Positions 5,749 to 53,794 of a stretch of DNA of 64,000 nucleotides are shown here, piece after piece. Position 1 is the stretch's first letter. Each line of letters opens with the position of its first letter. The DNA comes from Thermoleophilia bacterium (GTDB lineage: Bacteria; Actinomycetota; Thermoleophilia; Miltoncostaeales; Miltoncostaeaceae), in the NCBI GenBank assembly GCA_017853415.1, contig JAFMJQ010000001.1:12924-76923 (forward strand), given 5' to 3'. A program made the translations under genes and the position numbers. Under the pieces are notes generated by a model. The model did not search any database. It saw nothing but the letters and a program-made list of their open reading frames with translations, and had not been told where the DNA came from.

Positions 5749-6962
5749 CGACCGGCACGTCCGGCGTCACGTTCCACGTGCTCGCGCCACCGGGCGGCGG
5801 CGGCGCTCCACACGAACCCGCCTCCGCCCTCGGGCCGCCACCGGCAGAGGCGCCGCGCCTCGGGCCCCTCGTCCCCCCGCACCACCTCCGCGATCTCCAC
5901 GGTGCGTCGGGCGCCCGAGGCATCACGTGCCTGGTGCACCACCAGGTCAACCGCACTGGCCACCTGGTCGGCCACGGCCCGCCAGGGAAGCTCCAGATCG
6001 CCCATGAGGGCGAGCGTGACCAGGCGACGAAGGGCCTCCCGGGGTGACGACGCGTGCAGGGTCGACAGCGACCCCTCGTGCCCGGTGGTGAGGGCGCTGA
6101 TCATGTCGAGCGCCTCACCGCCGCGCACCTCCCCGACGATGATGCGGTCGGGCCTCATGCGCAGCGCGTTGCGCACGAGGGCCCGGATCGGCACGGCGCC
6201 GCGCCCCTCCACGCCCGCGGGTCGCGACTCCAGGCGCACCACGTGCTCGAGGGGCAGGCGCAGCTCCGCGGCATCCTCGATGGTGATCACCCGCTCGTCC
6301 CCGCCGATCGCGGCGCAGAGGGCCGCGAGGGTGGTGGTCTTGCCGCTGCCGGTGCCACCGGTGACGAGGATGTTGCGGCGGGCCGCCACCGCCGATCGCA
6401 GCGCGCTGAGCATCTCCGGAGACATCGCCCCGAGGCGCACGAGGTCGTCGCCCTGCAGCCGCTCGCCCGGAAACCGCCTGACGGTGAGGACGGGCCCGTC
6501 GATGCTCAGGGGCGGCACCACCGCATTCACGCGCGATCCGTCGGGGAGCCGCGCATCCACCATCGGGCTCGCCTCGTCGAGGCGTCGACCGAGGGGCGCC
6601 AGGATGCGATCGATCACGTGCAGCAGGTGATCGGAATCCGCGAAGCGGGTGTCCACCGCCTCGATGCGCCCTGCACGCTCCACCCACACCCTGTCCGGTC
6701 CGTTCACCATCACCTCGGTCACGGCGGGGTCGCGCAGCAGGGGCTCGAGCGGGCCCAGGCCGAGCATGGCGTCCACCACGGCGGTCACCACCGCAACCCG
6801 CCCCTCGGACGACAGGATGTGCCGGCCCTCGTCGAGCACGTCCTCCGCGAGGGCGGCGACCACCTGGCGCGTCACGGATGCCGGTTCCACCAGCCCGCCG
6901 CGCACGATGGTCGCGCGGATCTCCTCCACCAGGCCGGCATCGACGGGCGCTGTGGTGCTCAC
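5745..6962 (-). CDS. tadA: Tad pilus secretion ATPase TadA/CpaF
   Basis: C-terminal 405 aa of ORF 5745..7694 from the GTG at 6962 (VSTTAPVDAGLVEEIR..). VTEVMVNGPDRVWVERAG, Walker A LVTGGTGSGKTTTL, ITIEDAAEL, RMRPDRIIVGEVRGGEA and TGHEGSLSTLHA match the VirB11/CpaF family. Confidence 0.9.
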   Translation of the reverse strand: MSTTAPVDAGLVEEIRATIVRGGLVEPASVTRQVVAALAEDVLDEGRHILSSEGRVAVVTAVVDAMLGLGPLEPLLRDPAVTEVMVNGPDRVWVERAGRIEAVDTRFADSDHLLHVIDRILAPLGRRLDEASPMVDARLPDGSRVNAVVPPLSIDGPVLTVRRFPGERLQGDDLVRLGAMSPEMLSALRSAVAARRNILVTGGTGSGKTTTLAALCAAIGGDERVITIEDAAELRLPLEHVVRLESRPAGVEGRGAVPIRALVRNALRMRPDRIIVGEVRGGEALDMISALTTGHEGSLSTLHASSPREALRRLVTLALMGDLELPWRAVADQVASAVDLVVHQARDASGARRTVEIAEVVRGDEGPEARRLCRWRPEGGGGFVWSAAAARWREHVERDAGRAGR

Positions 6963-7639
6963 GCGGCCTCCACTACGGCCGCCACCGCCCGGGCGATGCC
7001 CTTGCCGCGCGCGGCCTGGCCCGCCGCCACCCGCGCGGCGTTCCGGTCGTCGCGTGGGACCGACCCGATGACCTCCGTGCCGATGGCCCGGCCGAGGGCC
7101 CGATCGGAGATGCGCTCGCCCACCGGCAGGTCGGTCGCCACCGCCAGCACGTTCCGCCCCGCGGTGCGGGCCAGCAGGCCGGCGGCCCGCTGGGCGCTGT
7201 GAACGCTGCGGGGCACCAGCGCCACCACCAGCGATGCCACCGCCACCAGCGCCGCGGCAAGCCGGGTGTCCGCGCGGCCGGCGTCGGCCACCCAGGGCGT
7301 GCGCGACGAGACGTACGCCGCGTATCGCTCGGGGCCCGGAGGTGCCCATGCAACGGCCGCGGCCGGTGACCGGCACCCCGCCATCACGTCCACGCCACCG
7401 GAGTGACGATGCACGAGATGCTCCAGGTGCTCCGGGCGCAGTTCGTCCCCGAGCCCCAGCAGGTCGTCCAGCGCCCGGGTCGCGGGGACGCACCAGAGGT
7501 CGGATGGCCCGCCGCAGTGCGGATCGACGTCCGCGATCAGGGGAACCTGCCCGTGCGCCGCGTGCGCGAGCGCCACGGCGCAGGCGAGTGTCGTGGTACC
7601 GCACCCCCCGACCGCACCCATCACCACGATGCCGCTCAC
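6959..7639 (-). CDS. CpaE/TadZ/Ssd-like ParA-fold protein with degenerate Walker A
   Basis: ORF 6959..7639. MSGIVVMGAVGGCGTTTLACAVALA resembles a MinD/ParA P-loop but lacks the Lys residues (GGCGTTT instead of KGGxGKT). Its position between cpaB-like and tadA is typical of actinobacterial Tad loci. Confidence 0.6.
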   Translation of the reverse strand: MSGIVVMGAVGGCGTTTLACAVALAHAAHGQVPLIADVDPHCGGPSDLWCVPATRALDDLLGLGDELRPEHLEHLVHRHSGGVDVMAGCRSPAAAVAWAPPGPERYAAYVSSRTPWVADAGRADTRLAAALVAVASLVVALVPRSVHSAQRAAGLLARTAGRNVLAVATDLPVGERISDRALGRAIGTEVIGSVPRDDRNAARVAAGQAARGKGIARAVAAVVEAA

Positions 7640-11419: not shown

Positions 11420-12072
11420 GCGTCCTTCCGGGCCAGGCGGGCCGCGTGGTCCTCGTTGAACTTCTCGATGCCCGCCGCCGTGAGCGGGTGGTGGAGCATC
11501 TGGTGGAACACCTTGGGCGGGATGGTGGCGATGTCGGCGCCCATGCGCGCGGCCTCCATCACGTGCACGGGGGTGCGCACGCTGGCGGCCAGGACCTCGG
11601 TGTCGTACTCCGACGCCCCCAGGGCCTCGACGATCTCGAGCAGGTGGCCCAGGCCGTCCTCGTTGATGTCGTCGTAGCGGCCGATGAACGGCGACACGAA
11701 CGCCGCGCCCGCCGCCGCGGCCAGCAGCGCCTGGTTGGCCGTGAAGCACAGGGTCATGTTCACGCGGATTCCATCGCGCGCCAGCGCGGCGGTGGCGCTG
11801 AGGCCCTCGCGGCTGGTGGGCAGCTTCACCACGATGTGCGGGTCGATCGCCGCCAGGCGACGGCCCTCGCTGATCATGGTGGGAACGTCATCGGCCACCA
11901 CCTCGGCCGACACCGGCCCGCCCACGATCTCGCAGATGCGGCGGTAGATGTCGTCCTCATCCCCCTCCACCTGCGAGAGCAGGGTGGGGTTGGTGGTGGC
12001 GCCGCTCAGCACCCCCCATGATGCGATCTCCTCGATGTCGGCGAGGTTCGCGGTGTCGATGTACAGCTTCAC
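11416..12072 (-). CDS. Transaldolase / fructose-6-phosphate aldolase (short TalC/Fsa subfamily)
   Basis: Within ORF 11416..12156. The GTG at 12072 is preceded by GGAGG. VKLYIDTANLADIEE..GVLSGATTNPTL...VVKLP...NMTLCFT..QALLAA.AGA.FVSPFIGR. About 218 aa, typical of this subfamily. Confidence 0.85.
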   Translation of the reverse strand: MKLYIDTANLADIEEIASWGVLSGATTNPTLLSQVEGDEDDIYRRICEIVGGPVSAEVVADDVPTMISEGRRLAAIDPHIVVKLPTSREGLSATAALARDGIRVNMTLCFTANQALLAAAAGAAFVSPFIGRYDDINEDGLGHLLEIVEALGASEYDTEVLAASVRTPVHVMEAARMGADIATIPPKVFHQMLHHPLTAAGIEKFNEDHAARLARKDA

Positions 12073-12121
12073 GGTGGGCCTCCGGAGGCGTGAACGCGTT
12101 GCGGCGAGGCTACCAGCCGGG

Positions 12122-12706
12122 TTATGCGGCCCTTTGCCGACGAATGACCCCGGCAAGCCAGAAACCGGACGCGACCGTGACGATGCCCCCCGCCACCACG
12201 AGGAAGATCGCGATGGTCATGCTGTCGGCGCCGCCGGGCTCCGCGCCCGGCGGGTATGCCCCCTGCGCCCCCGGCGCCCAGCGCACGCGCATGCCGCTGT
12301 TCCACGATGGCGTGAGGTATTCGGGATCGGGGCAGTCGGCGCGGCCGGACGACACGCACGCCAGGTAGCGCGCGCGGCTTCGCCCATTGGCGGCCTCCAC
12401 CTCGTCGGGGGCCACCGTCCAGCGGAAGGCCTGGCCGTCGGCCATCAGCGGCACGCTGCGCGCCACCACCCTGCCCTTGTCGTTGATGTTGCCCGTGGGC
12501 GTGGCCGAGCACGTCTGCACCCGTCCGATGCGCGCGCACGCGCCGAAGGCGCCCGTGGGATAGAAGAGGGCCCAGCGGGCCCCGGGCCCCTGCAGGGCGT
12601 CCCCCACCTGCCCGCGGTTCACGAACCCCGCCACGCCCCCCGCGACCAGCAGCAGGCCCAGCAGCACCCCGGCCGCGGGCCAGATGACCTTCCTGATGCC
12701 GCGCAT
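12122..12706 (-). CDS. Hypothetical membrane protein (N- and C-terminal TM segments)
   Basis: C-terminal 194 aa of artefactual ORF 12122..14263 from the ATG at 12706 (MRGIRKVIWPAAGVLLGLLLVAGG...IAIFLVVAGGIVTVASGFWLAGV). An alternative ATG lies at 12724. No family recognised. Confidence 0.4.
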   Translation of the reverse strand: MRGIRKVIWPAAGVLLGLLLVAGGVAGFVNRGQVGDALQGPGARWALFYPTGAFGACARIGRVQTCSATPTGNINDKGRVVARSVPLMADGQAFRWTVAPDEVEAANGRSRARYLACVSSGRADCPDPEYLTPSWNSGMRVRWAPGAQGAYPPGAEPGGADSMTIAIFLVVAGGIVTVASGFWLAGVIRRQRAA

Positions 12707-12724
12707 GGGGCGCCACTCTGGCAT

Positions 12725-14239
12725 ATGCTCGCCGCCGTGCCGCTGCGCTTCTCCCTGCCGATCCTCGTCTTCGTGGCCGGGGCATCCACCCTGGCCGCCG
12801 AGCTCACCGGCGCCCGGCTGCTCGCACCGTGGTTCGGGGCCAGCAACCTGGTGTGGGCCAACGTCATCGGGCTCACGCTCATCTACCTGTCGCTGGGCTA
12901 CTGGCTGGGCGGGAAGATGGCCGACCGCTACCCCAACCCGCGGGTGCTGGGGGGCGTGGTGATCGTGGCGGCCATCACGGTGGCGATCCTGCCGCTGGCG
13001 CTCAGCCCCATCTTCCGGGCGGCGCAGGGCGCCTTCGCCGATCTCTCGGCCGGGGCGTTCGTGGCCTCGTTCGTGGGCACCATGCTGATGTTCCTCGTGC
13101 CCATCACGCTGCTCGGCACCGTGTCGCCGTGGGCGATCCGCCTCACGGTGAAGGACGTCGAGACCGCCGGGTCGGTGGCCGGGCGGCTGTATGCCATCTC
13201 CACCGTCGGGAGCATCCTCGGCACGTTCCTGCCGGTGCTGGTGCTCATCCCCGCCATCGGCACGCGGGCCACGCTCATCCTCATCGCCGCCGTGCTGGCG
13301 CTGGCCGCCGTGCCGCTGCTGGGAGCCAGGGCCATCGCGGCGCCCGTGCTGCTGGCGGCGCTGCTGGCCCTGCCCGCGGGCACGATCAAGGAGGAGCCCG
13401 GCGAGACCGTGCTGTTCGAGGCGGAATCGCCGTACCAGTACGTGCAGGTGACCGAGGCCGCCGACGGCGAGCGCATCCTGCGCCTCAACGAGGGCTGGGC
13501 GCTGCACTCGGTGGTGCCGGCCGGCGGCGGGGCGCTCACCGGCGGGTACTGGGACGCCTTCCTCACCCTGCCGCTGCTCACGGGCAACCCCAACGCCCGC
13601 ATCGCGATACTCGGCAACGCCGGCGGCACCACGGCGCGGTCGTTCCGCCTCACCTGGCCCGGCGTGCACGTGGACGGCGTGGAGATCGACCCGGTGGTCA
13701 CCGAGGCGGGCAACCGCTACCTCGACATGGCGGGGCCCAACCTCACCACCCACGAGGCCGACGCCCGCTTCTGGCTGGCCGGCGACCGCGGACCGTTCGA
13801 TGCCGTGATCGTCGATGCCTACCGCCAGCCGTACATCCCGTTCCACCTCTCCACGGTGGAGTTCTTCGACGAGGTGCGCGCGCGCCTGGCGCCGCACGGC
13901 GTGGCGGCGATCAACGTGGGCACCCCGCCCGACGAGACCGCGGTGGTCGACCGCATCGCCGCCACCATGCGCAGCGTGTTCCCGGCCGTGCTGACCGCGC
14001 GCTACGGGGAGTTCAACAGCGTGATCCTGGGCTTCATGGACGCCGCGGATGCCGCCGATGCCCGGGCGCGGCTCGCCACGGCACGGGGCGACACCGCGGT
14101 GGCCGCGCGGGTGCTGTCCCCCCTCCTCACCCAGGTGCCCGCGGGAGGCGAGGTGTTCACCGACGACCTCGCGCCCGTGGAGCAGATGACCGACGGGGCG
14201 ATTCTGGACTACCTCAACAAGGGGGCCCCGGGAGCGTAG
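12725..14239 (+). CDS. Fused membrane / spermidine-synthase-like (PABS-fold) protein
   Basis: In-frame ATG at 12725 of ORF 11948..14239. About 7 TM segments are followed by ESPYQYVQV..RLN.G, ILGNAGGTTARS, VEIDP and VIVDAYRQPYIPFHLSTVEFF, the spermidine synthase family pattern. Confidence 0.75.
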   Translation: MLAAVPLRFSLPILVFVAGASTLAAELTGARLLAPWFGASNLVWANVIGLTLIYLSLGYWLGGKMADRYPNPRVLGGVVIVAAITVAILPLALSPIFRAAQGAFADLSAGAFVASFVGTMLMFLVPITLLGTVSPWAIRLTVKDVETAGSVAGRLYAISTVGSILGTFLPVLVLIPAIGTRATLILIAAVLALAAVPLLGARAIAAPVLLAALLALPAGTIKEEPGETVLFEAESPYQYVQVTEAADGERILRLNEGWALHSVVPAGGGALTGGYWDAFLTLPLLTGNPNARIAILGNAGGTTARSFRLTWPGVHVDGVEIDPVVTEAGNRYLDMAGPNLTTHEADARFWLAGDRGPFDAVIVDAYRQPYIPFHLSTVEFFDEVRARLAPHGVAAINVGTPPDETAVVDRIAATMRSVFPAVLTARYGEFNSVILGFMDAADAADARARLATARGDTAVAARVLSPLLTQVPAGGEVFTDDLAPVEQMTDGAILDYLNKGAPGA

Positions 14240-37579: not shown

Positions 37580-40552
37580 ATGCGCACCCTCCGGTATCTC
37601 GTCACCATCGCCGCGGCGCTCATCGGCATCGCCGCCGTGGCCGCAACCGCTGGCGCCGCCGAGCGTGACTTCTCGCTGCGGTTCTCGGACACCACGAACG
37701 GCAACATCGCCTTCGCGGGCAACTCCCTCATGACGTGCACGCCGTCCAACGCCGGGTGCACCGACGCACGCAACGGCGTGGGCACCAAGCTCAACAACAA
37801 CGACTACGACATGCTGCGCGTCAACACCCTCTCGGGCGATGGCGCGGCAACTGCGGCGTCGTCGTCCACCCTGTCGCTGCCGGCCGATGCCACGGTGCTG
37901 TTCGCCGGGCTCTACTGGTCGGCGCGCTCGAGCAGCGCCGCCAGGGGGCGCGTGGCGCTGATCGACCCCAAGGGCAAGCGCACCGACATCACCGCCGTGC
38001 AGCTGGATGAAATCGGCGGGACCAAGGCCTACTTCGCATTCGCCGACGTCACCCCGCTCGTCGATTCGGCGGGTGTGGGGTCGTACACCGTGGCGGACGT
38101 CCAGGCCGACACCGGCAAGGACAAGTACGCGGGCTGGTCGCTCGTGGTGGCCTACGCGTCGCGCTCCGAGGAGGCGCGCAACCTCACCGTGTTCGATGGC
38201 GCACGCGAGGTGTCGGCAGGGGCCAAGAGCACCATCACCATCCCGATCAGCGGGTTCCTGGCGCCGCCCAGCGGTCAGGTGAACACCACCGTGGGCTTCG
38301 TGGCGGGCGAGGGCGATCGCAGCAGCGTGGGCGACTTCGTGCGCCTGAACGGCGTGAACATGCAGAACGCCCTCAACCCGGCGAACAACGTCGCCAATGC
38401 CACGGCGTCGCGGCTGGGCAGCGAGGCGCTTGACCGCGCGCCGTCGTGGACCAACCTCCTGGGCTGGGATGTGGACACCTTCAACGCCGACGGCATCATC
38501 GCGAACGGCGCCACCTCGGCCACCCTCACGGCCACCACCAGCGGCGAGACCTACTACCCGCAGGTGCTCTCGCTTGCCACCGAGGTGTACGCGCCCGACA
38601 TCCAGCTGCAGAAGTCGGTCACCGACATCAACGGCGGCGCGGTGGAGCGGGGCGACGTGCTCGAGTACACGGTCACTGCCACCAACGTGGGATCCGACGC
38701 CGCGGCCTCGGCGATCCTGCGCGACCCGGTGCCCGGCAGCACGGACTTCGTGCCCGGGAGCATCCGCGTCAATGGCACGCCGGTCACCGATGCGACGGCC
38801 GATGACGCCGGTGCGTACTACCCGGGCTCCTCCGAGGTCATCGCCGCGCTCGGCACCGGCACGGTGCCCGCAGGCGGCACGATGGCCGTGGGGGCCGTGA
38901 CCACCGTGACCTTCCGCACCACGGTTCGCGACACCCTCGCCAACGGCAGCAGCATCACCAACCGCGCGCGCGCCGACTACAAGGCGGCCACCGGCGGCCT
39001 GCCCCTGGGCTCGGAGTCGAACCTGGTGCCGGCGGCCATCACGGCACCCGACCTCACAATCAGCAAGTCGGCCAACGACTTCGCGCAGGGCGGCACCGCC
39101 ACCTGGACCATGACCGTGCGGAACGTCGGCGGCACCAGGCTCACCAGCAAGGTGACGGTGGCCGATGAGATCCCCGCGGGCGTCACCGGGGTGCGTGCCA
39201 GCGGCAGCGGCTGGACCTGCGAGGTGATCCCCGCCCGCGTCATCTGCCAGCGCCCGGGGCCCGTGGAGGCCGGGGGCAGCACGCCTCCCATCACCCTCAC
39301 CGGCCGCGTGGGCAACGGCGCCCGCGTGGTGAACGTGGCGCGCGTCACGTCGGACCAGGACCAGAATCCCGAGAACGACTACGCGCTCACCGAGAACGTC
39401 TTCAACGTGCCGAAGATCAACGTCGACTTCGGCACCACCGTCGCGGTGAGCGACCGGCGTCCCATCGCGGGTGACCGCATCACCGTCACGGCGGGCTACC
39501 GCCACTACGACGGCGTGCCGGCGACGTCGCGCATCTCGGTGTCGCTGCCGTCCACGATCGTGCCCACGGGCGCCAGCCTGCGCGGCGACGCCGAGGGTGA
39601 CTGCACGATCGCGGGCACCACGGTCACGTGCACGGTGGGAGTGCTGCGCGAGGGCGAGGGCGTCACGCTCACCATCACCGCCCGCGTGAGCGGGTCGGTG
39701 TCCGGGGGAACCACGATCGTCTCCACGATCCAGCCGACCGGCGGGGACGTCGATCCGGCGCAGGGCAACAACCAGGCGGCGGTGATCGTGGGCGTGCTCC
39801 CACCGCAGCCCGCCGTGTCGGCACCCACGTCGATCGAGATCACCAAGAGCGCGGTGGGCCCGGCGCCCGCCTATGGCGCGATCGCCACCTGGCGCGTGAC
39901 GGTGCGCAACACCGGCACGGCGACGGCCGGGGCCGCCTACTTCCAGGACCAGCTTCCCGCCACCGCCACGCTGGTCAGCGCCACGGTGACCGGAGGCGCG
40001 GCATGCACCAACCGCGGCGGCGTGGTGCGGTGCGACCTCGGCGACCTCGCCCCCGGCGCGGAGCGCTCGGCCACGATCCGGGCCCGCTACTACGTGATCG
40101 GCGAGGTCACCAACGGGGCCACGGCCTACGCCAACGACGGCGTGCGCGACCGCGGATCGGCCACCGTGGACGTCTACCCCGCCCGCCTGCGCGTGGCAAT
40201 CACCACGCCGCGGCGCTGGGGTGCCGGCCAGGTGATGCCGGCGACGGCGACCATCAGGGGCATCGGGCCGCTCACCGCCCGTGGCACGAAGCTGTCGGTC
40301 ACCATCCCCGCCGGAGTCGGCGTGGTGGCGGCACCGGGCTTCACGATCACCCGCAACTCGGGCGGCGCCACGGTGCTCACGCGATCCACCGGCAACCTGA
40401 GGCAGGGGGCCCGCACGGCGTTCGCGCTGCAATTGCGGGCGCCGACCTCGGCGCGCCGCCTCGTGCTCACCGACGCCGGCACGGCATCGAACACCGCGAA
40501 GGACACCGCACGCACGCCGGCCTACGTGACGCGCACGCCGGTGACCGGATGA
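37580..40552 (+). CDS. Large secreted DUF11-repeat (conserved repeat domain) surface/adhesin-like protein
   Basis: ORF 37580..40552. Signal peptide MRTLRYLVTIAAALIGIAAVAATAGA. N-terminal domain with LFAGLYWSA / YAGWSLVVAY. There are at least 4 repeats of the DUF11 type (GDVLEYTVTATNVGSDAA..DPVPGSTDFV; TWTMTVRNVGGT..VADEIPAGV; ATWRVTVRNTGTA..FQDQLPATATLV). No LPXTG plus TM anchor. Confidence 0.75.
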   Translation: MRTLRYLVTIAAALIGIAAVAATAGAAERDFSLRFSDTTNGNIAFAGNSLMTCTPSNAGCTDARNGVGTKLNNNDYDMLRVNTLSGDGAATAASSSTLSLPADATVLFAGLYWSARSSSAARGRVALIDPKGKRTDITAVQLDEIGGTKAYFAFADVTPLVDSAGVGSYTVADVQADTGKDKYAGWSLVVAYASRSEEARNLTVFDGAREVSAGAKSTITIPISGFLAPPSGQVNTTVGFVAGEGDRSSVGDFVRLNGVNMQNALNPANNVANATASRLGSEALDRAPSWTNLLGWDVDTFNADGIIANGATSATLTATTSGETYYPQVLSLATEVYAPDIQLQKSVTDINGGAVERGDVLEYTVTATNVGSDAAASAILRDPVPGSTDFVPGSIRVNGTPVTDATADDAGAYYPGSSEVIAALGTGTVPAGGTMAVGAVTTVTFRTTVRDTLANGSSITNRARADYKAATGGLPLGSESNLVPAAITAPDLTISKSANDFAQGGTATWTMTVRNVGGTRLTSKVTVADEIPAGVTGVRASGSGWTCEVIPARVICQRPGPVEAGGSTPPITLTGRVGNGARVVNVARVTSDQDQNPENDYALTENVFNVPKINVDFGTTVAVSDRRPIAGDRITVTAGYRHYDGVPATSRISVSLPSTIVPTGASLRGDAEGDCTIAGTTVTCTVGVLREGEGVTLTITARVSGSVSGGTTIVSTIQPTGGDVDPAQGNNQAAVIVGVLPPQPAVSAPTSIEITKSAVGPAPAYGAIATWRVTVRNTGTATAGAAYFQDQLPATATLVSATVTGGAACTNRGGVVRCDLGDLAPGAERSATIRARYYVIGEVTNGATAYANDGVRDRGSATVDVYPARLRVAITTPRRWGAGQVMPATATIRGIGPLTARGTKLSVTIPAGVGVVAAPGFTITRNSGGATVLTRSTGNLRQGARTAFALQLRAPTSARRLVLTDAGTASNTAKDTARTPAYVTRTPVTG

Positions 40553-46669: not shown

Positions 46670-47704
46670 TCAGGCGCCCACGATGCTGCGCAGGCGCGCC
46701 ACCACGTCCACGGGCCGCGGCGTGGCCGCGGATACCACGATGGTGGTCACGCCGACGTCGGCGAGCGCATCGAGGCGCTGCCCCACGTGCGCGGCGCTTC
46801 CCACCAGCGCGAGGGCGTCGAGCATCGCGTCAGTCACATGCGCCTCGGCCTCGGCCTTCTGCCCCGCGAGCGCGGCATCGCGAATGCGCTCGCATTCGGC
46901 CGCAAAGCCCATGGCGGCCACGGCGTCGCGGTAGTAGTTGCGATCGCGCGAGCCCATCGAGCCCACGTAGAAGGCGATCTCGCGGCGTGCGGCCGCCCGC
47001 GCCGCCTCTGCCCCCGCACCCTCGCCCACCCAGCACACGGCAGAGGCCATGATGGCCAGCGCACCCAGAGGCGGCTGCCGCCGTGCCGTGCCGGCCGCGA
47101 GGGCGTCGGCCCAGGGGCCGCGGATGGCCTCGGGCGTGGCGAAGAGCGGCCACCAGCCATCGGCATGTTCCGCCGCCAGGCGCACTCCCCCCGGGGCGAG
47201 CGCCGCCACCACGATCGGCACCCGATCGCGCTCGGGCCGGGTGATCATCCGCAGGGCCTTGCCGGACCCCATGCCGCGACCCGGCGGCAGGGGAATCGGA
47301 CGCGGTCCGTCCACCTCGAGCACCTCCCGTCGCCACGCCATGCGGCACGCCGTGATGGCCTCGCGCAGCTCACCGAGGGGACGATCGAAGGGCACGCCGT
47401 GCCAGCCCTCCACCACCTGCGGGCCCGAGGTGCCGAGGCCGGCCACCGCACGGCCGCCCGACAGGGAATCCGCACCCGCGAAGGTCTGCGCGATCAGGGC
47501 CGGGCTGCGCGAGTAGACCGGCAGCACCGCGCCGATGCCCAGGCGCGTGGTGCTCGCGGCGATGGCCCCCATGAGGGTGGGCGCGTCGAACCCCCACGTC
47601 TCGGGAATCCACACCTCGTCGGCGCCGGAATCCTCGGCCCGCACGGCGAGGTCGAGGGACGTTCGCGGGGCCGCCATGTGATCGAGGGCGAGGGCGATGC
47701 GCAC
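46670..47704 (-). CDS. LLM-class (luciferase-like) F420/flavin-dependent oxidoreductase
   Basis: ORF 46670..47704. DSGADEVWIPETWGFDA, RLGIGAVLPVYSRSPA, GLGTSGPQVVEGWHGVPF. Confidence 0.8.
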   Translation of the reverse strand: MRIALALDHMAAPRTSLDLAVRAEDSGADEVWIPETWGFDAPTLMGAIAASTTRLGIGAVLPVYSRSPALIAQTFAGADSLSGGRAVAGLGTSGPQVVEGWHGVPFDRPLGELREAITACRMAWRREVLEVDGPRPIPLPPGRGMGSGKALRMITRPERDRVPIVVAALAPGGVRLAAEHADGWWPLFATPEAIRGPWADALAAGTARRQPPLGALAIMASAVCWVGEGAGAEAARAAARREIAFYVGSMGSRDRNYYRDAVAAMGFAAECERIRDAALAGQKAEAEAHVTDAMLDALALVGSAAHVGQRLDALADVGVTTIVVSAATPRPVDVVARLRSIVGA

Positions 47705-47773: not shown

Positions 47774-47934
47774 ACGCTGGACATGCGTCCGTATGCGCGT
47801 CTATCGTCGCTGTGACGCATGCCCGGGCGGACGTTTCAGATCGCCCTCCTGTCCACGAGACGATCGGCGAGTAACTGAGCACCGCAGGAACGCAGGTCGA
47901 GGCCCGGGCACGCTCGCTCGCGGCCCTCAGGGCC

Positions 47935-50900
47935 ATGATGAGCGCGCGCTGGATCGACGCGGTCGAGGAGGAGCTCGTGCAGCGCGGCGAGGCCTTCTTC
48001 CAGCTGGGAGGCGCCGGGCACGAGGCATCGGCCGTGCTGGCCGACCACCTGGGCCCCCAGGACTGGCTGCAGCCGCACTACCGCTCGCGCGCCCTGCTCG
48101 TGCGCAGGGGAATCGCCCCGCAGAGGTTCTTCGACGGACTGCTCTCCACCGCCGACTCCGACTCGGCCGGGCGTCAGATGCCGGCCTTCCTGCACGACCC
48201 CGAACTGCACGTGCTGCCGATGACCGTGCCCACGGGCAACGGACTGCTGCATGCCGTGGGCGTGGCCCGTGAGGTGGCGGGCAACCCCGGCCGCCCGATC
48301 GTGGTGGCGGGCGTGGGCGACGGCACCACCCAGCAGGGCGAGGTGATGGAGGCCATCGGCGAGGCCGCCCGTGAGGGCCTTCCCGTGCTGTTCTGGATCG
48401 AGGACAACGGGTACGCGATCTCCACGCACACCAGCGGACGCACGATCTACGACACCGTCGGCGGCCCCGCAGCCGAGTTCCTCGGCGTGCCGATCGTGCG
48501 CGCCGACGGCCGCGACCCCGTGGCGCTCGAGGTGGTGGCCGCGCGGGCGGTGCAGGACGTCCGTGAGGCCCGACGCCCGGTGGTGCTCGTGGCCCAGGTG
48601 GAGCGCCTCACCCACCACACCAACGCCGACGACGAGTCGGTGTATCGCGACGCCGCCGAGCGCGCCGCCGCCCGCGCGGGCGACCCCATCGCCGCGCTGC
48701 GCGACAACCTGATCGCCGACGGCGTGCCCGCCGACGAGCTGGTGGCGCTCGACCGCGAGGTGGAGGCCGAGGTGCGCGCCGCCGCCGCGCGCGCGCTGGC
48801 GGCGCCCGATCCCGTGGCGTCGCGCCGGGCGATCCGCCCGGTGTCGACCGATGTCATCGCGCGGGCCAGTGCCCCCGCCGACCCCGCGGACGGCCCGCCG
48901 CGCACGATGCTCGAGGCCATGCGCGACGTGCTCGCGCGGCGCCTTGCCGCCGACGAGCGCGTGTCGCTGATGGGCCAGGACATCGAGGACCCCAAGGGCG
49001 ACGTGTTCGGCCTCACGCGCGGGCTGTCCACCGCGCATCCGGGTCGGGTCACCAACGCACCGCTGAGCGAGTCGACCATCGTCGGAACCGCCATCGGGCG
49101 CGCGCTCGCCGGCGGACGCCCCGTGGCGATGATCCAGTTCGCCGACTTCCTGCCGCTGGCGTTCAACCAGATCGCGTCCGAACTCGCCACCATCTACTGG
49201 CGCACCGCCGGCGCGTGGTCCACCCCCGTGGTCATCCTCGCCCCGTGCGGGGCGTACCGACCGGGCCTCGGGCCGTTCCACGCGCAGACGATGGAGGCCA
49301 CGTTCGCCCACATCCCGGGGCTCGACGTCGCCATGCCCAGCACGGCCGACGATGCCGCGGGCGTGCTCGAGGCCGCGCTGGACGGAGATCGCCCCACGCT
49401 CATCCTCTATCCCAAGACCTGCCTCAACGACCCCGCGCGGGCGACCCGCGTGGCGGGCGAGCATCGCCCGGTCGTTCCCGGGCACGCCGCGGTGCGGCAC
49501 CGGGGCGACGACGTCACCATCGTGGCGTGGGGCTCCACGGCGCCCATCGCGGAGCGTGCGGCGGCCGTGCTCGACGCCGCCGGCGTGGGCGTCGACCTCA
49601 TCGACCTGCGGTCGATCGCCCCGTGGGACATGGAGGCCGTCACCGCCAGCGCCGCGCGCACGCGCCGCCTGGTGGTGGTGCACGAGGACAACCTCACCGG
49701 AGGCTTCGGGGCCGAGGTGGTGGCGCACGTGTCCGATCACCTCGAGGGCGAGCTCACCACGCGCCGCATCGCGCGCCCGGACACCTGGGTGCCCAACAAC
49801 TACGTCAACCAGGTCGAGGTGCTGCCGGGCACACGCGACGTGGTGGAGGCGGTGGCCGCGATGATCGGCGGCCTCGAGGTGCAGGAGGCCGAGGCCGCGC
49901 AGGAAGTGGACGGCGTGCTGGCCGTCGAGGCCACCGGATCGAGCCCGGCCGACCAGCAGGTGATGGTCGTGGAGTGGCTCGTGGCCGACGGCGACACCGT
50001 CACCGAGGGCCAGGTGATCGCCGAGGCCGAGGGCGACAAGGCCACGTTCGAGCTGGCCGCGCCGGCATCGGGCGAGATCTTCGGCCTGCACGACGAGATG
50101 GAATCGGTGCCGGTGGGCACCGTGCTCGCCAGCATCACCCTCGCCCCGGGTGCCGTTGCCGCGCGCCACCGCCTTCCCGCCGAGCCCACGCTGCGCGTGC
50201 GCCGGGTTCCCGGGCACCAGCCGTCGCCGGTGCGCGCCGCCGCGCCCGCCACGCAGGCGTCCGCCCTGCCGGTGGGCCTGTCGGGAATCTCCGTGCGTGC
50301 CGGTGGGCGAATCCTCACCAACGCCGACATCGCGGCGAGGTTCCCCGGACGCACCGAGGCCGACATCGTCCGGCGCACGGGAATCCGCCAGCGCCCCGTG
50401 CTGGCCCCGGGCGAGGACATCGCCGATCTCGCATCGCGCGCGGCGCGCGAGGCGCTGGACGCCGAGGGCCTGGCGCTCGGCGATCTCGAGGCCATCATCG
50501 CGGCCACCGGAACCCCGCCGCGCCTCAGCCCCTCGGTGGCATGCCTGGTGCAGAACGCCCTCGCCGAGCAGGACGGCCCGGCAGACGTTGCCGCCAGCGA
50601 CGTGTCGGCCGCGTGCTCCGGCTACCTCTACGCCATGCAGACGGCGCACGACATGCTGCAGCAGCGCCCCGAGGCATCGGTGCTCGTGCTCACGGCCGAG
50701 GCCATGACCCGCTACGTCGACCCCGACGACTTCGACACCGTCGTGGTGTTCGGGGACGCCGTCACCGCCACCGTGGTGCACGGACCGGCCCGCGCCGGGG
50801 GCTCGCCGGTGCTGCTGCACCGTCCCGTGCTCTCGGCCAGCGGCGACGATGGCTCGGTGATCCGCCACGGCCCCGCCGACGCGGACTTCCTCTTCATGGA

Positions 50901-51234
50901 TGGACCGCGCGTGTACACCCGTGCGGTTCGCGAGATGCTGCGCATGCTCGACCGCGCCGCCGCGCAGACCGGGGCATCCACCGCCGAGTTGATGCACGTC
51001 ATCCCGCATCAGGCCAACGGGCGCATCATCTCGTCGGTGCAGGCCCGCAGCGGACTTCCCGCCGACCGCTTCGTGGTGAACGTCGAGAACTGGGGCAACA
51101 CCTCGTCGTCCACGATCCCCATCGCCATCGCCGAGCACCTCGCGACCTCCCCCACCGGCCTCGGTGGCCTCGTGGCCTTCGGCGCGGGCCTCACGTCGGG
51201 GGCGGCTATCGTGGAGTTCACGGGCAACGACTGA
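47935..51234 (+). CDS. Four-domain fusion: 2-oxoacid dehydrogenase E1-alpha + E1-beta + lipoyl domain + FabH-type 3-oxoacyl synthase III
   Basis: ORF 47935..51234, one frame with no stops.
- aa 1-300, E1-alpha: TPP motif GVGDGTTQQGE..x..WIEDNGYAIS; BCKDH-like RLTHHTNADDESVYRD.
- aa 322-645, E1-beta: LMGQDIEDPKGDVFGLTRGL; ESTIVGTAIGRALAGGRPVAMIQFADFL.
- aa 660-736, lipoyl domain: VVEWLVADGDTVTEGQVIAEAEGDKATFEL, Lys702.
- aa 780-1097, KAS III: TGIRQR; AACSGYLY Cys894; PHQANGRI His1025; WGNTSSST Asn1055. Confidence 0.85.
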   Translation: MMSARWIDAVEEELVQRGEAFFQLGGAGHEASAVLADHLGPQDWLQPHYRSRALLVRRGIAPQRFFDGLLSTADSDSAGRQMPAFLHDPELHVLPMTVPTGNGLLHAVGVAREVAGNPGRPIVVAGVGDGTTQQGEVMEAIGEAAREGLPVLFWIEDNGYAISTHTSGRTIYDTVGGPAAEFLGVPIVRADGRDPVALEVVAARAVQDVREARRPVVLVAQVERLTHHTNADDESVYRDAAERAAARAGDPIAALRDNLIADGVPADELVALDREVEAEVRAAAARALAAPDPVASRRAIRPVSTDVIARASAPADPADGPPRTMLEAMRDVLARRLAADERVSLMGQDIEDPKGDVFGLTRGLSTAHPGRVTNAPLSESTIVGTAIGRALAGGRPVAMIQFADFLPLAFNQIASELATIYWRTAGAWSTPVVILAPCGAYRPGLGPFHAQTMEATFAHIPGLDVAMPSTADDAAGVLEAALDGDRPTLILYPKTCLNDPARATRVAGEHRPVVPGHAAVRHRGDDVTIVAWGSTAPIAERAAAVLDAAGVGVDLIDLRSIAPWDMEAVTASAARTRRLVVVHEDNLTGGFGAEVVAHVSDHLEGELTTRRIARPDTWVPNNYVNQVEVLPGTRDVVEAVAAMIGGLEVQEAEAAQEVDGVLAVEATGSSPADQQVMVVEWLVADGDTVTEGQVIAEAEGDKATFELAAPASGEIFGLHDEMESVPVGTVLASITLAPGAVAARHRLPAEPTLRVRRVPGHQPSPVRAAAPATQASALPVGLSGISVRAGGRILTNADIAARFPGRTEADIVRRTGIRQRPVLAPGEDIADLASRAAREALDAEGLALGDLEAIIAATGTPPRLSPSVACLVQNALAEQDGPADVAASDVSAACSGYLYAMQTAHDMLQQRPEASVLVLTAEAMTRYVDPDDFDTVVVFGDAVTATVVHGPARAGGSPVLLHRPVLSASGDDGSVIRHGPADADFLFMDGPRVYTRAVREMLRMLDRAAAQTGASTAELMHVIPHQANGRIISSVQARSGLPADRFVVNVENWGNTSSSTIPIAIAEHLATSPTGLGGLVAFGAGLTSGAAIVEFTGND

Positions 51235-51247
51235 CCGGGAGCGCGGC

Positions 51248-51649
51248 ATGGCATCTGTCGAGTACTCGCTGGCGATCGAGGTGGACCGCGACTTCGAGGA
51301 CGTGGTGGCCACCACCCGCGAGGCCCTCGCGGCAGAGGGCTTCGGCGTGCTCACCGAGATCGACGTCAAGGCCACGATGAAGGCGAAGCTCGACGTCGAC
51401 CGCGACGAGTACCTGATCCTCGGTGCCTGCAACCCGCCGCTGGCGCACCGGGCGCTGGAGGCCGAGCCGGAGCTCGGCGTGCTGCTGCCCTGCAACGTGG
51501 TGATCTACCGCACCGGCGGGAAGACCCGCGTGAGCGCCGTGGCCGCCGAGCAGATGCTCGGCATGGTGGGCAACGACGACCTCGCGCCGGTGGCCACCGA
51601 GGTGGCCGAGCGCCTCGACCGCGTGCTCGCGGCCGTGGCCTCCGCCTAG
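51248..51649 (+). CDS. DUF302 domain protein
   Basis: In-frame ATG at 51248 of ORF 51164..51649, 13 nt after the fusion-gene stop. EGFGVLTEIDVKATMKAKL...YLILGACNP..A..AL..EPELGVLLPCNVVIY, a typical DUF302 pattern. Confidence 0.75.
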   Translation: MASVEYSLAIEVDRDFEDVVATTREALAAEGFGVLTEIDVKATMKAKLDVDRDEYLILGACNPPLAHRALEAEPELGVLLPCNVVIYRTGGKTRVSAVAAEQMLGMVGNDDLAPVATEVAERLDRVLAAVASA

Positions 51650-52714: not shown

Positions 52715-53794
52715 TCAGCGGGCGGTCACGGGTGCGGCGGCGTCGAGCCGGGCGATCTCCTTGCGCACCGCGGGAGCAACCTCGGTGCCGTAGAGCTCGA
52801 TCGCCCGCATCATGTCGGCGTGCGGCGGATTGCCCACGCCCATGTGCAGCAGCACGCGACGGTTCCCGAACATCTCGTACTCGGCCAGGATCTTCTCGGT
52901 CACCTCCGCGGGGCTGCCCACCATGAGGGCTCCGTGGGGCTGGCGCATGCGGTCGAACTGCGCGCGGTCGATCTGGCTGCCCCAGCCGCGCTCGCTGCCG
53001 ATCTGGTTCATGGCCGCCATCAGGCCGGGCGCCGAGATGTCGGCAGCCTTCTGCGAGGTGTCGGCGATGAAGCCGTGCGAACCGATGGACACCGGGACAT
53101 CCGCCGGATCGTGGCCGAATTCCGTGAGGGCCTCGCGGTAGAGGTTGACGAACGGGATGAACGGCTGGGCCGCGGCGCCGATGATGGCCACCGATATCGG
53201 CAGGCCGCGGGCCGCGGCGTTCACCACCGACTGCGGCGTTCCGCCCACGGCGATCCATACCGGAAGCTGCTCCTGCTGGGGGCGCGGGTGCACGGCGCGG
53301 CCCTCGATCGGCGGGCGGCGCGTGCCCTCCCAGGTGACCACCTCCTCGTCGCGCAGCTGCAGCAGCAGGTCGAGCTTCTCGAGGAACAGGCCCTGGTAGT
53401 CGGCGAGGTCGTACCCGAAGAGGGGGAACGACTCGATGAACGACCCGCGCCCGGCCATGATCTCCGCGCGCCCCTGCGAGATGAGGTCGATGGTGGCGAA
53501 GTCCTGGAACACCCGCACCGGGTCGTCGGACGACAGCACCGTCACCGACGAGGTGAGCCGGATTCGCGAGGTGCGCGACGCCGCCGCCGCGAGCACCACG
53601 GCGGGCGACGACACCGGGAAGTCCGGACGGTGGTGCTCGCCCACGCCGAAGACGTCGAGCCCCACCTCGTCGGCAAGCACGATCTCGTCCACCAGATCCC
53701 GAACCCGCTGGCCGACGTCGATGGCGCGCCCCGTGGCCGGGTCGGGCGTGGCGTCGCCGAACGAGTAGATGCCGAGTTCGATGCCCTGGATCAC
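52715..53794 (-). CDS. LLM-class flavin-dependent oxidoreductase
   Basis: ORF 52715..53794. [37 protein letters not shown], the luciferase-like monooxygenase pattern. Confidence 0.8.

Follow-up and report, generated by a model that had tools for sequence, protein, structure and literature searches.

A fusion of 2-oxoacid dehydrogenase E1, lipoyl, and KAS III domains as a candidate module for coenzyme A-independent initiation of acyl chains

Background

In the textbook account, the initiation of bacterial fatty-acid chains and of many polyketide chains joins an acyl-coenzyme A (acyl-CoA) to malonyl-acyl carrier protein (malonyl-ACP) on FabH, and 2-oxoacid dehydrogenases end in acyl-CoA. Here, we describe a gene that brings the two kinds of enzyme together in an unfamiliar way. 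It lies in a stretch of 64,000 nucleotides, referred to below as the window, from the genome of a Thermoleophilia bacterium (assembly GCA_017853415.1, contig JAFMJQ010000001.1, positions 12,924 to 76,923, forward strand), and its predicted product joins the alpha and beta halves of a 2-oxoacid dehydrogenase E1, a lipoyl domain, and a FabH-like 3-oxoacyl-ACP synthase III (KAS III). An earlier note, written from the DNA alone, had singled out this gene and raised the idea that the acyl group formed on the lipoyl arm passes directly to the KAS III cysteine. We have followed up this idea with Pfam, NCBIfam, and Rfam scans, database-wide protein and genome searches, alignment to solved structures, AlphaFold2 (AF2) modelling, and comparison of gene neighbourhoods.

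Results

One uninterrupted gene encodes four domains

The fusion gene (Table 1) starts with ATG and encodes 1099 residues with zero internal stops, as seen both in the list of open reading frames (ORFs) and in the translation. The GC content at its third codon positions (GC3), 0.93, is typical of genes in this window, of which ~73% is GC, and is consistent with a genuine gene. Six Pfam models match the protein, every one of them over its gathering score, and they place E1-alpha, E1-beta, lipoyl domain, and KAS III in that order. Two domains expected of a dihydrolipoyl acyltransferase (E2) were looked for in the same protein at E ≤ 0.01, namely the E2 core (2-oxoacid_dh, PF00198) and the peripheral subunit-binding domain (PSBD; E3_binding, PF02817), and neither was matched; the last 320 residues are KAS III and not an E2 core. 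In all these respects, that is, the single stop-free frame of 1099 codons, the order of the domains, and the absence of PSBD and E2 core, the earlier note had described the gene correctly. It also had the right numbers for Lys702, Cys894, His1025, and Asn1055, and the right positions for the codons that it located, and all four residues are invariant in a 32-sequence cross-phylum alignment of fusion proteins, to which invariance refers throughout.

An AF2 model computed with the 32-sequence alignment has a mean predicted local distance difference test (pLDDT) score of 82 and a predicted TM-score (pTM) of 0.70; it is mainly the linkers that are modelled with low confidence. Foldseek found no solved chain that covers more than ~40% of this model.

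Upstream of the ATG, the fusion frame remains open for another 20 codons (47875-47934), following a TAA at 47872-47874. The translated extension ends in SLAALRA and resembles the short N-terminal extension of homologues; ATG, GTG, and TTG are absent from it, but there is a CTG at 47875. Translation may thus begin upstream of the ATG, at a non-canonical codon; alternatively, the relatives of this protein may simply be longer.

Table 1. Coordinates of the fusion gene, its domains and key residues, and two neighbouring genes in the window
Feature	Position	Strand	Remarks
Whole fusion gene, 1099 codons + stop	47935..51234	+	E1-alpha, E1-beta, lipoyl, KAS III
E1-alpha (ThDP-binding), residues 1-293	47935..48813	+	Pfam E1_dh, residues 1-293, 135 bits
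ThDP/Mg motif G128-D129-G130...E156-D157-N158	48316..48408	+	aligns with GDG...ENN of 1um9_A
His227-His228 in loop RLTHHTNADD	48613..48618	+	aligns with YRYGPHSSADD of 1um9_A
Alpha-beta linker, residues 294-323	48814..48903	+	column identity 0.34; coil in AF2
E1-beta (pyrimidine-binding + C-terminal domains), residues 324-644	48904..49866	+	Transket_pyr PF02779, residues 324-497, 92 bits; Transketolase_C PF02780, residues 516-621, 96 bits
Glu379 in PLSES	49069..49071	+	invariant; aligns with PLSE(A/S) Glu of 1um9_B, 1qs0_B, 3duf_B
His449 in GPFHAQT	49279..49281	+	invariant; aligns with HHSQS/THSQS of solved E1-betas
Acidic linker L1, residues 645-660	49867..49914	+	14-16 residues in 32/32, E/A/G/D-rich, column identity 0.43
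Lipoyl domain, residues 661-736	49915..50142	+	Pfam Biotin_lipoyl PF00364, residues 676-734, 44.7 bits; all-beta, barrel-like strands in AF2
Lys702 in E-G-D-K-A, predicted lipoylation site	50038..50040	+	D-K-A motif
Linker L2, residues 737-779	50143..50271	+	40-63 residues across family, P/A/R-rich, column identity 0.42
KAS III (FabH-like), residues 780-1099	50272..51231	+	ACP_syn_III, residues 889-950, 62 bits; ACP_syn_III_C, residues 1011-1094, 74 bits
Arg806...Asp810 in place of FabH Thr28 and Trp32	50350..50364	+	32/32
Ser865 at FabH Phe87 position, primer-pocket gate	50527..50529	+	Ser in 31/32
Cys894, predicted acyl-accepting nucleophile	50614..50616	+	E. coli FabH Cys112
Phe933-Asp934 in place of FabH Arg151-Gly152	50731..50736	+	32/32
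His1025	51007..51009	+	E. coli FabH His244
Arg1030, counterpart of FabH Arg249	51022..51024	+	32/32
Asn1055	51097..51099	+	E. coli FabH Asn274
Luciferase-like (flavin- or F420-dependent) monooxygenase, divergent from fusion gene	46670-47704	-	
Second luciferase-like monooxygenase	52715-53794	-	

The fusion is a family found in three phyla

Among 5.8 billion proteins searched, at least 120 clusters at 90% identity carry the same six Pfam domains, with 96-100% query coverage, 50-93% identity, and sources that include NCBI, ENA, JGI, and Logan assemblies. An exact look-up of the window protein in an index of assemblies gave no match. The species genomes of GTDB yielded 49 loci, and the fusion is uninterrupted in about 32 independent loci from metagenome-assembled genomes (MAGs) of three phyla. 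The nearest of these (90-93% identity) belong to MAGs labelled Miltoncostaeales or Thermoleophilia (Actinomycetota), and more distant ones (43-54%) to Verrucomicrobiota and Planctomycetota (Pirellulaceae, Phycisphaera). When the part from the lipoyl domain to KAS III was used in a HMMER search of representatives of 50%-identity clusters, 37 representatives longer than 1000 residues were found, with identities down to ~30%: 36 of them have ~1090-1210 residues and one, P0152, has 1,942. A lipoyl domain precedes KAS III in at least 52 of the cluster representatives, and the comparison of lipoyl-linked KAS III with plain FabH given below is based on a set of 150 of these 50%-identity representatives.

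All carriers of the fusion that we found are MAGs. Their proteins go under generic names in the source databases ('transketolase', '2-oxoisovalerate dehydrogenase E1 component', 'beta-ketoacyl-ACP synthase 3', 'thiamine pyrophosphate-dependent enzyme'), none of the databases covered has a curated name for the architecture, and we found no description of the four-part arrangement in the open-access literature, although a prior account outside open access is possible. This agrees with the earlier note, which could name no characterised enzyme of this kind, and the spread across Thermoleophilia, Verrucomicrobiota, and Planctomycetota bears on its question of how widely the architecture occurs.

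Two irregularities among the public records deserve mention. One homologous region from a Planctomycetota MAG (L043:10001-13215, coverage 0.08) has 17 in-frame stops, which look like low-coverage assembly error rather than the mark of a pseudogene. Five records (L003, L004, L007, L022, and L033) are titled 'Bifidobacterium', with proteins 78-87% identical to that of the window and Thermoleophilia-like, high-GC synteny; the titles are almost certainly automated mislabelling.

The E1 part retains the motifs of two-subunit dehydrogenases

The best solved relative of the E1-alpha region is 1um9_A, from a branched-chain 2-oxoacid dehydrogenase (BCKDH) of Thermus thermophilus, with 110.7 bits over chain residues 45-331; some 44 N-terminal residues that the T. 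thermophilus E1-alpha possesses are missing. The earlier note had recognized a GDG..N motif for thiamine diphosphate (ThDP) and a loop of branched-chain type, both of which do align with 1um9_A. Gly128, Asp129, Glu156, Asp157, and Asn158 of the motif are invariant (32/32), and so is every residue from His227 to Asp233 of the loop (H227, H228, T229, N230, A231, D232, D233), which we take to be the active-site histidine loop of the E1-alpha of BCKDH and pyruvate dehydrogenase (PDH), with a role in reductive acylation.

For E1-beta, the score against 1um9_B is 185 bits, and the AF2 model matches 1um9_B and 9a5n_A with target-normalised TM-scores (TMt, from Foldseek) of 0.89-0.90. Glu379 is presumably the E1-beta glutamate that activates N1' of ThDP, and we assume that His449 is the catalytic histidine of E1-beta. 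By the alpha and beta features tested, the E1 part belongs to the heterotetramer type of E1 (PDH/BCKDH/acetoin class), here with both subunits on one chain.

The lipoyl domain is flanked by variable tethers

All NCBIfam matches of the lipoyl domain are to lipoyl regions of E2 proteins. Lys702 and Ala703 are invariant, and Asp701 is conserved to at least 90%; a D-K-A motif marks lipoyl rather than biotinyl domains, and by these features and its predicted all-beta fold the domain is a member of the lipoyl family. Mean column identity is 0.73-0.77 in the four domains and 0.34-0.43 in the three linkers. Variable linkers of constant kind on both sides of the lipoyl domain are what a swinging lipoyl domain needs. 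Linker L2 has low pLDDT at residues 744-748 and 765-775.

Within the otherwise variable L2, Arg746 (R746) and Pro748 (P748) are invariant, and AF2 places a short strand at 752-757 with moderate confidence. These elements may form a docking motif for dihydrolipoamide dehydrogenase (E3) or for one of the catalytic domains.

The KAS III domain keeps its triad and ACP site but not the clamp for CoA

The KAS III domain is clearly related to FabH, with E values of 1e-40 to 1e-45 against the solved enzymes 4ryb, 2ebd, and 1hn9 and Foldseek TMt of 0.90-0.92, and yet falls short of the curated models: its last 315 residues score 236.7 bits against PRK09352/NF006829 (cutoff 249), and the score against TIGR00747 is 202 bits (cutoff 292). 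We use the numbering of Escherichia coli FabH, the sequence of which was 100% identical to 1hn9_A. The Cys-His-Asn triad that the earlier note had asked to be aligned falls exactly on that of E. coli FabH (Table 1), and it is present in 32/32 sequences of the alignment and in all 37 of the long representatives. Arg249 belongs to the ACP-docking site of E. coli FabH; at its position, 34 of the long representatives have Arg and the other three have Lys.

The site for CoA is different. In FabH, the adenine of CoA is stacked between Trp32 and Arg151 and hydrogen-bonded to Thr28, and the pantetheine is held by Arg36, Asn209/210, and Asn246/247 (PMC4606726). The five solved FabHs that were aligned to the window protein all keep Trp32 (in 'sdeW') and Arg151 (in 'DRxT'), whereas the fusion family has replaced all three adenine contacts (Table 1). 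Of the pantetheine contacts, Asn210 has become hydrophobic (Leu/Pro/Met/Val), and the tunnel residues Arg36, Met207, Gly209, Phe213, Ala246, Asn247, and Phe304 are kept. Trp32 and Arg151 occur together in none of 52 lipoyl-linked KAS III domains, but in 44 of 57 proteins of FabH size without a lipoyl domain.

The primer pocket also differs. Phe87 restricts E. coli FabH to acetyl, and a Thr takes its place in MtFabH, the long-chain enzyme of Mycobacterium tuberculosis (PMC12625853); the long representatives of the fusion family have Thr, Ser, or Ile at this position, never Phe. Set beside E. coli FabH (1HN9/1HND; ~31% identity, TMt 0.90), the domain has the triad, the tunnel residues, and Arg249 in common, and departs from it by Thr28→Arg, Trp32→Asp, Arg151→Phe, Asn210→hydrophobic, and Phe87→Ser, and by the 780 residues of E1 and lipoyl sequence that precede it. 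Judged from sequence, it is a divergent KAS III, with triad and ACP-docking arginine in place, no CoA clamp, and scores below the curated cutoffs; its predicted CoA nucleotide site is remodelled and its ACP site retained.

Relatives with split or additional domains

The same parts also occur in other arrangements. P0208 (442 residues) and P0243 (491 residues) are lipoyl-KAS III proteins, and P0191 (511 residues) is a lipoyl-PSBD-KAS III protein, in other words an E2 with its catalytic core swapped for KAS III. Directly upstream of each lies a gene for a fused E1-alpha/beta of 651-661 residues (L053-L055 for P0208, L057 for P0243, and L050 for P0191), with a stop/start overlap of 4 bp in L053-L055 and L057 and a gap of 13 bp in L050. 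Such a 'Rosetta-stone' pattern, with repeated fusion, fission, and translational coupling, is a classic sign that the parts act together. That P0191 has a PSBD fits a logic in which the docking domain is kept when E1 is separate and dispensable when E1 is covalently attached. The gene for P0191 (L050:4405-5940) adjoins an amidohydrolase_2 gene as well as the fused E1-alpha/beta gene.

Other relatives point to the product. P0152 (1942 residues, GCA_029777335.1; L052:10001-15829) continues beyond the four parts with a ketoreductase (KR) of polyketide synthase (PKS) type and a PP-binding/ACP domain with the serine motif GIDSM, and 6 bp 3' of the gene for P0199, another lipoyl-KAS III protein, lies a gene for an 81-residue carrier protein with the motif GATSMDTVDIV. 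The motif of the latter, YGATSMDTVDIV, has LGADSLDTVELV as its counterpart in E. coli AcpP. These KR and ACP additions suggest that the output of the KAS III domain is a 3-oxoacyl thioester on a carrier protein. The last ~250 residues of P0152 gave no Pfam match even at E ≤ 1 and could be a release or off-loading domain.

A more distant group of E1-alpha/beta fusions, from Chloroflexota and TA06 (L045-L049), was set aside as ordinary or unrelated, having either a SpoIIE phosphatase gene downstream or a classical E1/E2/E3 operon.

Genomic surroundings

The window is ordinary chromosome, with mraZ, glpX, hom/thrC/thrB, lysA, argB/argC/argD, pheT, infC, transporter genes, and a gene for a P-type ATPase. 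An all-against-all BLAST of ORFs from 33 loci, the window included, gave no neighbouring gene common across phyla. Luciferase-like monooxygenase genes such as the two that flank the fusion gene recur in 14 Thermoleophilia-type loci but not across phyla, and a DUF302 gene lies downstream only in Actinomycetota loci, not in those from Verrucomicrobiota or Planctomycetota; in the window, this gene (51164-51649, +) would share 71 nt with the 3' end of the fusion gene if it began at the earliest start available to it. We rejected both as functional evidence, as the synteny is limited to closely related Actinomycetota loci. The fusion gene behaves as a stand-alone module, and the operon context of the four-part form gives no functional clue. 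No Rfam model reached its gathering threshold anywhere in the window, and no riboswitch or leader was detected.

Elsewhere in the window, two high-GC3 ORFs, 11948-14239 (+, 763 residues) and 6054-7202 (+, 382 residues), have no Pfam match at E ≤ 1e-4. A 990-residue protein with four DUF11 repeats, DUF7507, and DUF3344 is encoded at 37580-40552 (+) and is probably a large surface- or cell-wall-associated repeat protein; the genes that follow, for a PIG-L deacetylase, a phosphodiester glycosidase (NAGPA), and a polysaccharide deacetylase, suggest that the region is a cell-envelope glycan locus.

Discussion

Proposed mechanism

The architecture is that of a swinging-arm 2-oxoacid dehydrogenase with what appears to be a new output module, and, read this way, it implies a new acyl-transfer reaction. 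We propose that E1 acylates the lipoyl arm, that the arm primes the KAS III cysteine, and that condensation with malonyl-ACP yields 3-oxoacyl-ACP, a reading to which we assign a probability of roughly 60%. Computational evidence suggests, in short, that the fusion is a self-contained '2-oxoacid to 3-oxoacyl-ACP' initiation module, by which fatty-acid or polyketide chains might be begun from a 2-oxoacid with no acyl-CoA in between.

In the initial step, the fused E1-alpha/beta with its ThDP would decarboxylate a 2-oxoacid and reductively acylate the lipoyl group on its own Lys702, as its intact motifs lead one to expect. The fused E1 is probably a homodimer that mimics the alpha2-beta2 tetramer; as E1 (alpha2-beta2) and FabH are both obligate dimers, a fusion that forms homodimers would suit the two alike. 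The lipoyl domain would then swing to KAS III on its tethers of 15 and 40-60 residues, the latter rich in Pro, Ala, and Arg, and the S-acyl-dihydrolipoyl arm would enter the pantetheine tunnel in place of acyl-CoA, through a tunnel mouth that has lost the bulky adenine clamp, and pass its acyl group to Cys894. Malonyl-ACP would dock next, to be decarboxylated and condensed to 3-oxoacyl-ACP, a step made plausible by the retained His and Asn and the ACP-docking Arg. The product would enter type II fatty-acid synthesis or, in the KR-ACP variants, a dedicated reductive pathway. Finally, the dihydrolipoyl arm would be reoxidised in trans, most simply by the E3 of the cell. The transfer from lipoyl arm to KAS III cysteine, which was the central idea of the earlier note, thereby gains computational support from the split operons, the KR-ACP fusion, the loss of the clamp, and the retention of the triad and Arg249.

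Several observations weigh against this proposal. The lipoyl-lysine arm is shorter than phosphopantetheine, which puts its reach to Cys894 in question, and the window protein lacks a PSBD through which E3 might be recruited. Among the window ORFs scanned there is no gene for E3, ACP, FabD, or lipoate attachment (the earlier note, too, had remarked on the absence of E3, ACP, and malonyl-transferase genes), nor are such genes conserved beside the fusion in any phylum; the partners are therefore assumed. The contrast in Trp32 and Arg151 reaches p = 4e-19 in a Fisher test, a value that overstates the independence of phylogenetically related clusters and that includes, as plain FabH, some short entries that may be fragments. 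Moreover, the split variants P0191 and P0208, the most FabH-like, keep Arg151 and have Tyr at position 32, so the wider lipoyl-KAS III group has not lost the clamp throughout, and for the same reason P0191 may still bind a nucleotide-bearing thioester. Finally, the E1 part has its best NCBIfam matches in the PDH models, where it reaches 165 bits for alpha and 171 bits for beta, far under the respective cutoffs of 411 and 321.

This last point bears on the substrate, for which the earlier note had favoured branched-chain 2-oxoacids. In E1-alpha, the T. thermophilus branched-chain enzyme scores highest (110.7 bits), before human BCKDH (~80 bits) and Geobacillus stearothermophilus PDH (71 bits); the ranking of solved E1s by E1-beta is similar. 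No usable determinants of E1 specificity could be drawn from PMC2663715. Because the branched-chain E1 scores best and Phe87 is absent, which would enlarge the primer pocket, we lean weakly towards a primer larger than acetyl, for example one derived from the 2-oxoacids of valine, leucine, or isoleucine, with pyruvate as another possible substrate. The branched-chain guess finds weak support in the match to 1um9 and in the missing Phe87; among NCBIfam models, the E1 part matched those for PDH, under cutoff.

Alternative explanations

One alternative keeps the parts and drops the condensation, the KAS III domain being a transacylase only, or surrogate E2, that hands the acyl group to holo-ACP or CoA without a Claisen reaction. 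FabH does have an acyl-CoA:ACP transacylase half-reaction, and acyl transfer is all that several KAS III-like proteins catalyse, although these usually have altered triads. In the fusion family, His1025 and Asn1055, which malonyl decarboxylation and condensation require and transacylation does not, are invariant (32/32, with Cys-His-Asn in 37/37), and the KR that follows KAS III in P0152 implies a 3-oxo product. It does count for a transacylase that P0191 keeps a PSBD, as a true E2 would, and that KAS III sits where QncL-type proteins have an ACP-loading E2 acyltransferase core (PMC6335953). On the whole we consider it unlikely. Of the two acceptors, CoA, which the surrogate role suggested in the earlier note would have included, is disfavoured by the loss of Thr28, Trp32, and Arg151, so that transfer to ACP without condensation is what stays as a rival. 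The fusion might instead merely co-localise consecutive enzymes, as fusions commonly do, with E1 and lipoyl domain feeding a separate E2 and KAS III using the resulting acyl-CoA. This would be the textbook route of Bacillus and Staphylococcus, in which branched acyl-CoA from Bkd goes to FabH (PMC10026030, PMC8524195). The lipoyl domain, however, is on the E1-KAS chain rather than on an E2, and in the split forms it is KAS III, specifically, that shares a polypeptide with it; a PSBD for docking to an E2 core is missing, none of the ~32 loci from three phyla has an adjacent E2 gene, and the adenine clamp with which FabH holds CoA has been lost family-wide. We regard such mere co-localisation as very improbable.

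The origin of the acyl group can be questioned as well. If the ThDP part were transketolase-like, a C2 glycolaldehyde unit from a ketose phosphate would pass to the lipoyl arm and give a 4-hydroxy-3-oxobutyryl thioester. QncN, QncL, and QncM, which combine PDH/transketolase-like and lipoyl components, deliver a glycolicacyl unit to ACP in this manner (PMC6335953), the whole E1 part matches transketolase with TMt 0.67-0.70, and the low scores against the PDH/BCKDH equivalog models leave room for another donor. The best matches in sequence and fold are nonetheless true 2-oxoacid E1s (1um9 A/B, 1qs0, 1w85), the HHTNADD loop closely resembles that of BCKDH/PDH, and the gene stands among housekeeping genes without any nonribosomal peptide synthetase (NRPS) or PKS context, and we would give the ketose phosphate little credence. 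Least of all can the single frame be put down to an assembly chimera or a frameshift that joins separate genes. The relatives of the window are all MAGs, and the L043 locus is full of stops, but the architecture is continuous over 96-100% of the query in the clusters from four assembly sources and in the independent loci of three phyla, linker lengths are conserved, and GC3 is uniformly 0.93. The artefact reading is effectively refuted, and its remaining probability is negligible.

Relation to known systems

The pair of BCKDH complex and FabH that initiates branched chains in Bacillus and Staphylococcus performs the same two chemistries in the same order as proposed here, and the E1 halves and the KAS III domain of the fusion are its clear homologues. 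The fusion differs in having no E2 core and no PSBD and, as proposed, no free acyl-CoA intermediate, and in having E1-alpha and E1-beta on one chain, the lipoyl domain between E1 and KAS III, and no CoA clamp. The nearest conceptual precedent is QncN/QncL/QncM of quinocarcin biosynthesis, along with SclQ1-4 of scleric acid biosynthesis, where the lipoyl arm receives its acyl group from a ThDP enzyme and this group goes on to a carrier protein and not to CoA. QncL itself joins E1-beta-like, lipoyl, and acyltransferase domains on one chain (PMC6335953). In the Qnc system, which belongs to an NRPS cluster, the acyltransferase is of true E2 type and the donor is a ketose phosphate, whereas in the window protein a condensing enzyme takes the place of the acyltransferase and E1 is of 2-oxoacid type, and its gene stands alone among housekeeping genes. 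For joining components of a 2-oxoacid dehydrogenase on one polypeptide, the same phylum offers a precedent in actinobacterial OdhA/Kgd, in which an E2 succinyltransferase domain is fused to a homodimeric E1o without a lipoyl domain of its own; the window protein is the reverse of this, with a lipoyl domain retained, no E2 core, and a condensing enzyme gained.

Conclusions

We put forward tentatively, and with rather less than even confidence, that whole lineages, namely Miltoncostaeales (Thermoleophilia), many Verrucomicrobiota, and Pirellulales (Planctomycetota), start fatty-acid synthesis independently of CoA, with a lipoyl arm priming the condensing enzyme. If this is true, the transfer from an S-acyl-dihydrolipoyl protein to a ketosynthase cysteine would be a new acyl-transfer reaction and a new reaction of the lipoyl cofactor, giving lipid synthesis a new point of entry. 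The module would, in addition, be a natural swap of the output module of a swinging-arm multienzyme, the third such module for 2-oxoacid dehydrogenases beside the CoA-loading E2 and the ACP-loading QncL. In engineered strains, one gene would then suffice as the part that turns inexpensive 2-oxoacids into branched or unusual 3-oxoacyl-ACP starters. The proteins, now named 'transketolase', 'E1 component', or 'FabH', would be misjudged by annotation pipelines and by inhibitors directed at FabH. In the organisms themselves, the fusion may serve as the principal FabH, or the sole one, and may determine the proportion of branched to straight chains in the membrane lipids, which would help to explain the lipid profiles of abundant uncultured lineages of freshwater and soil.

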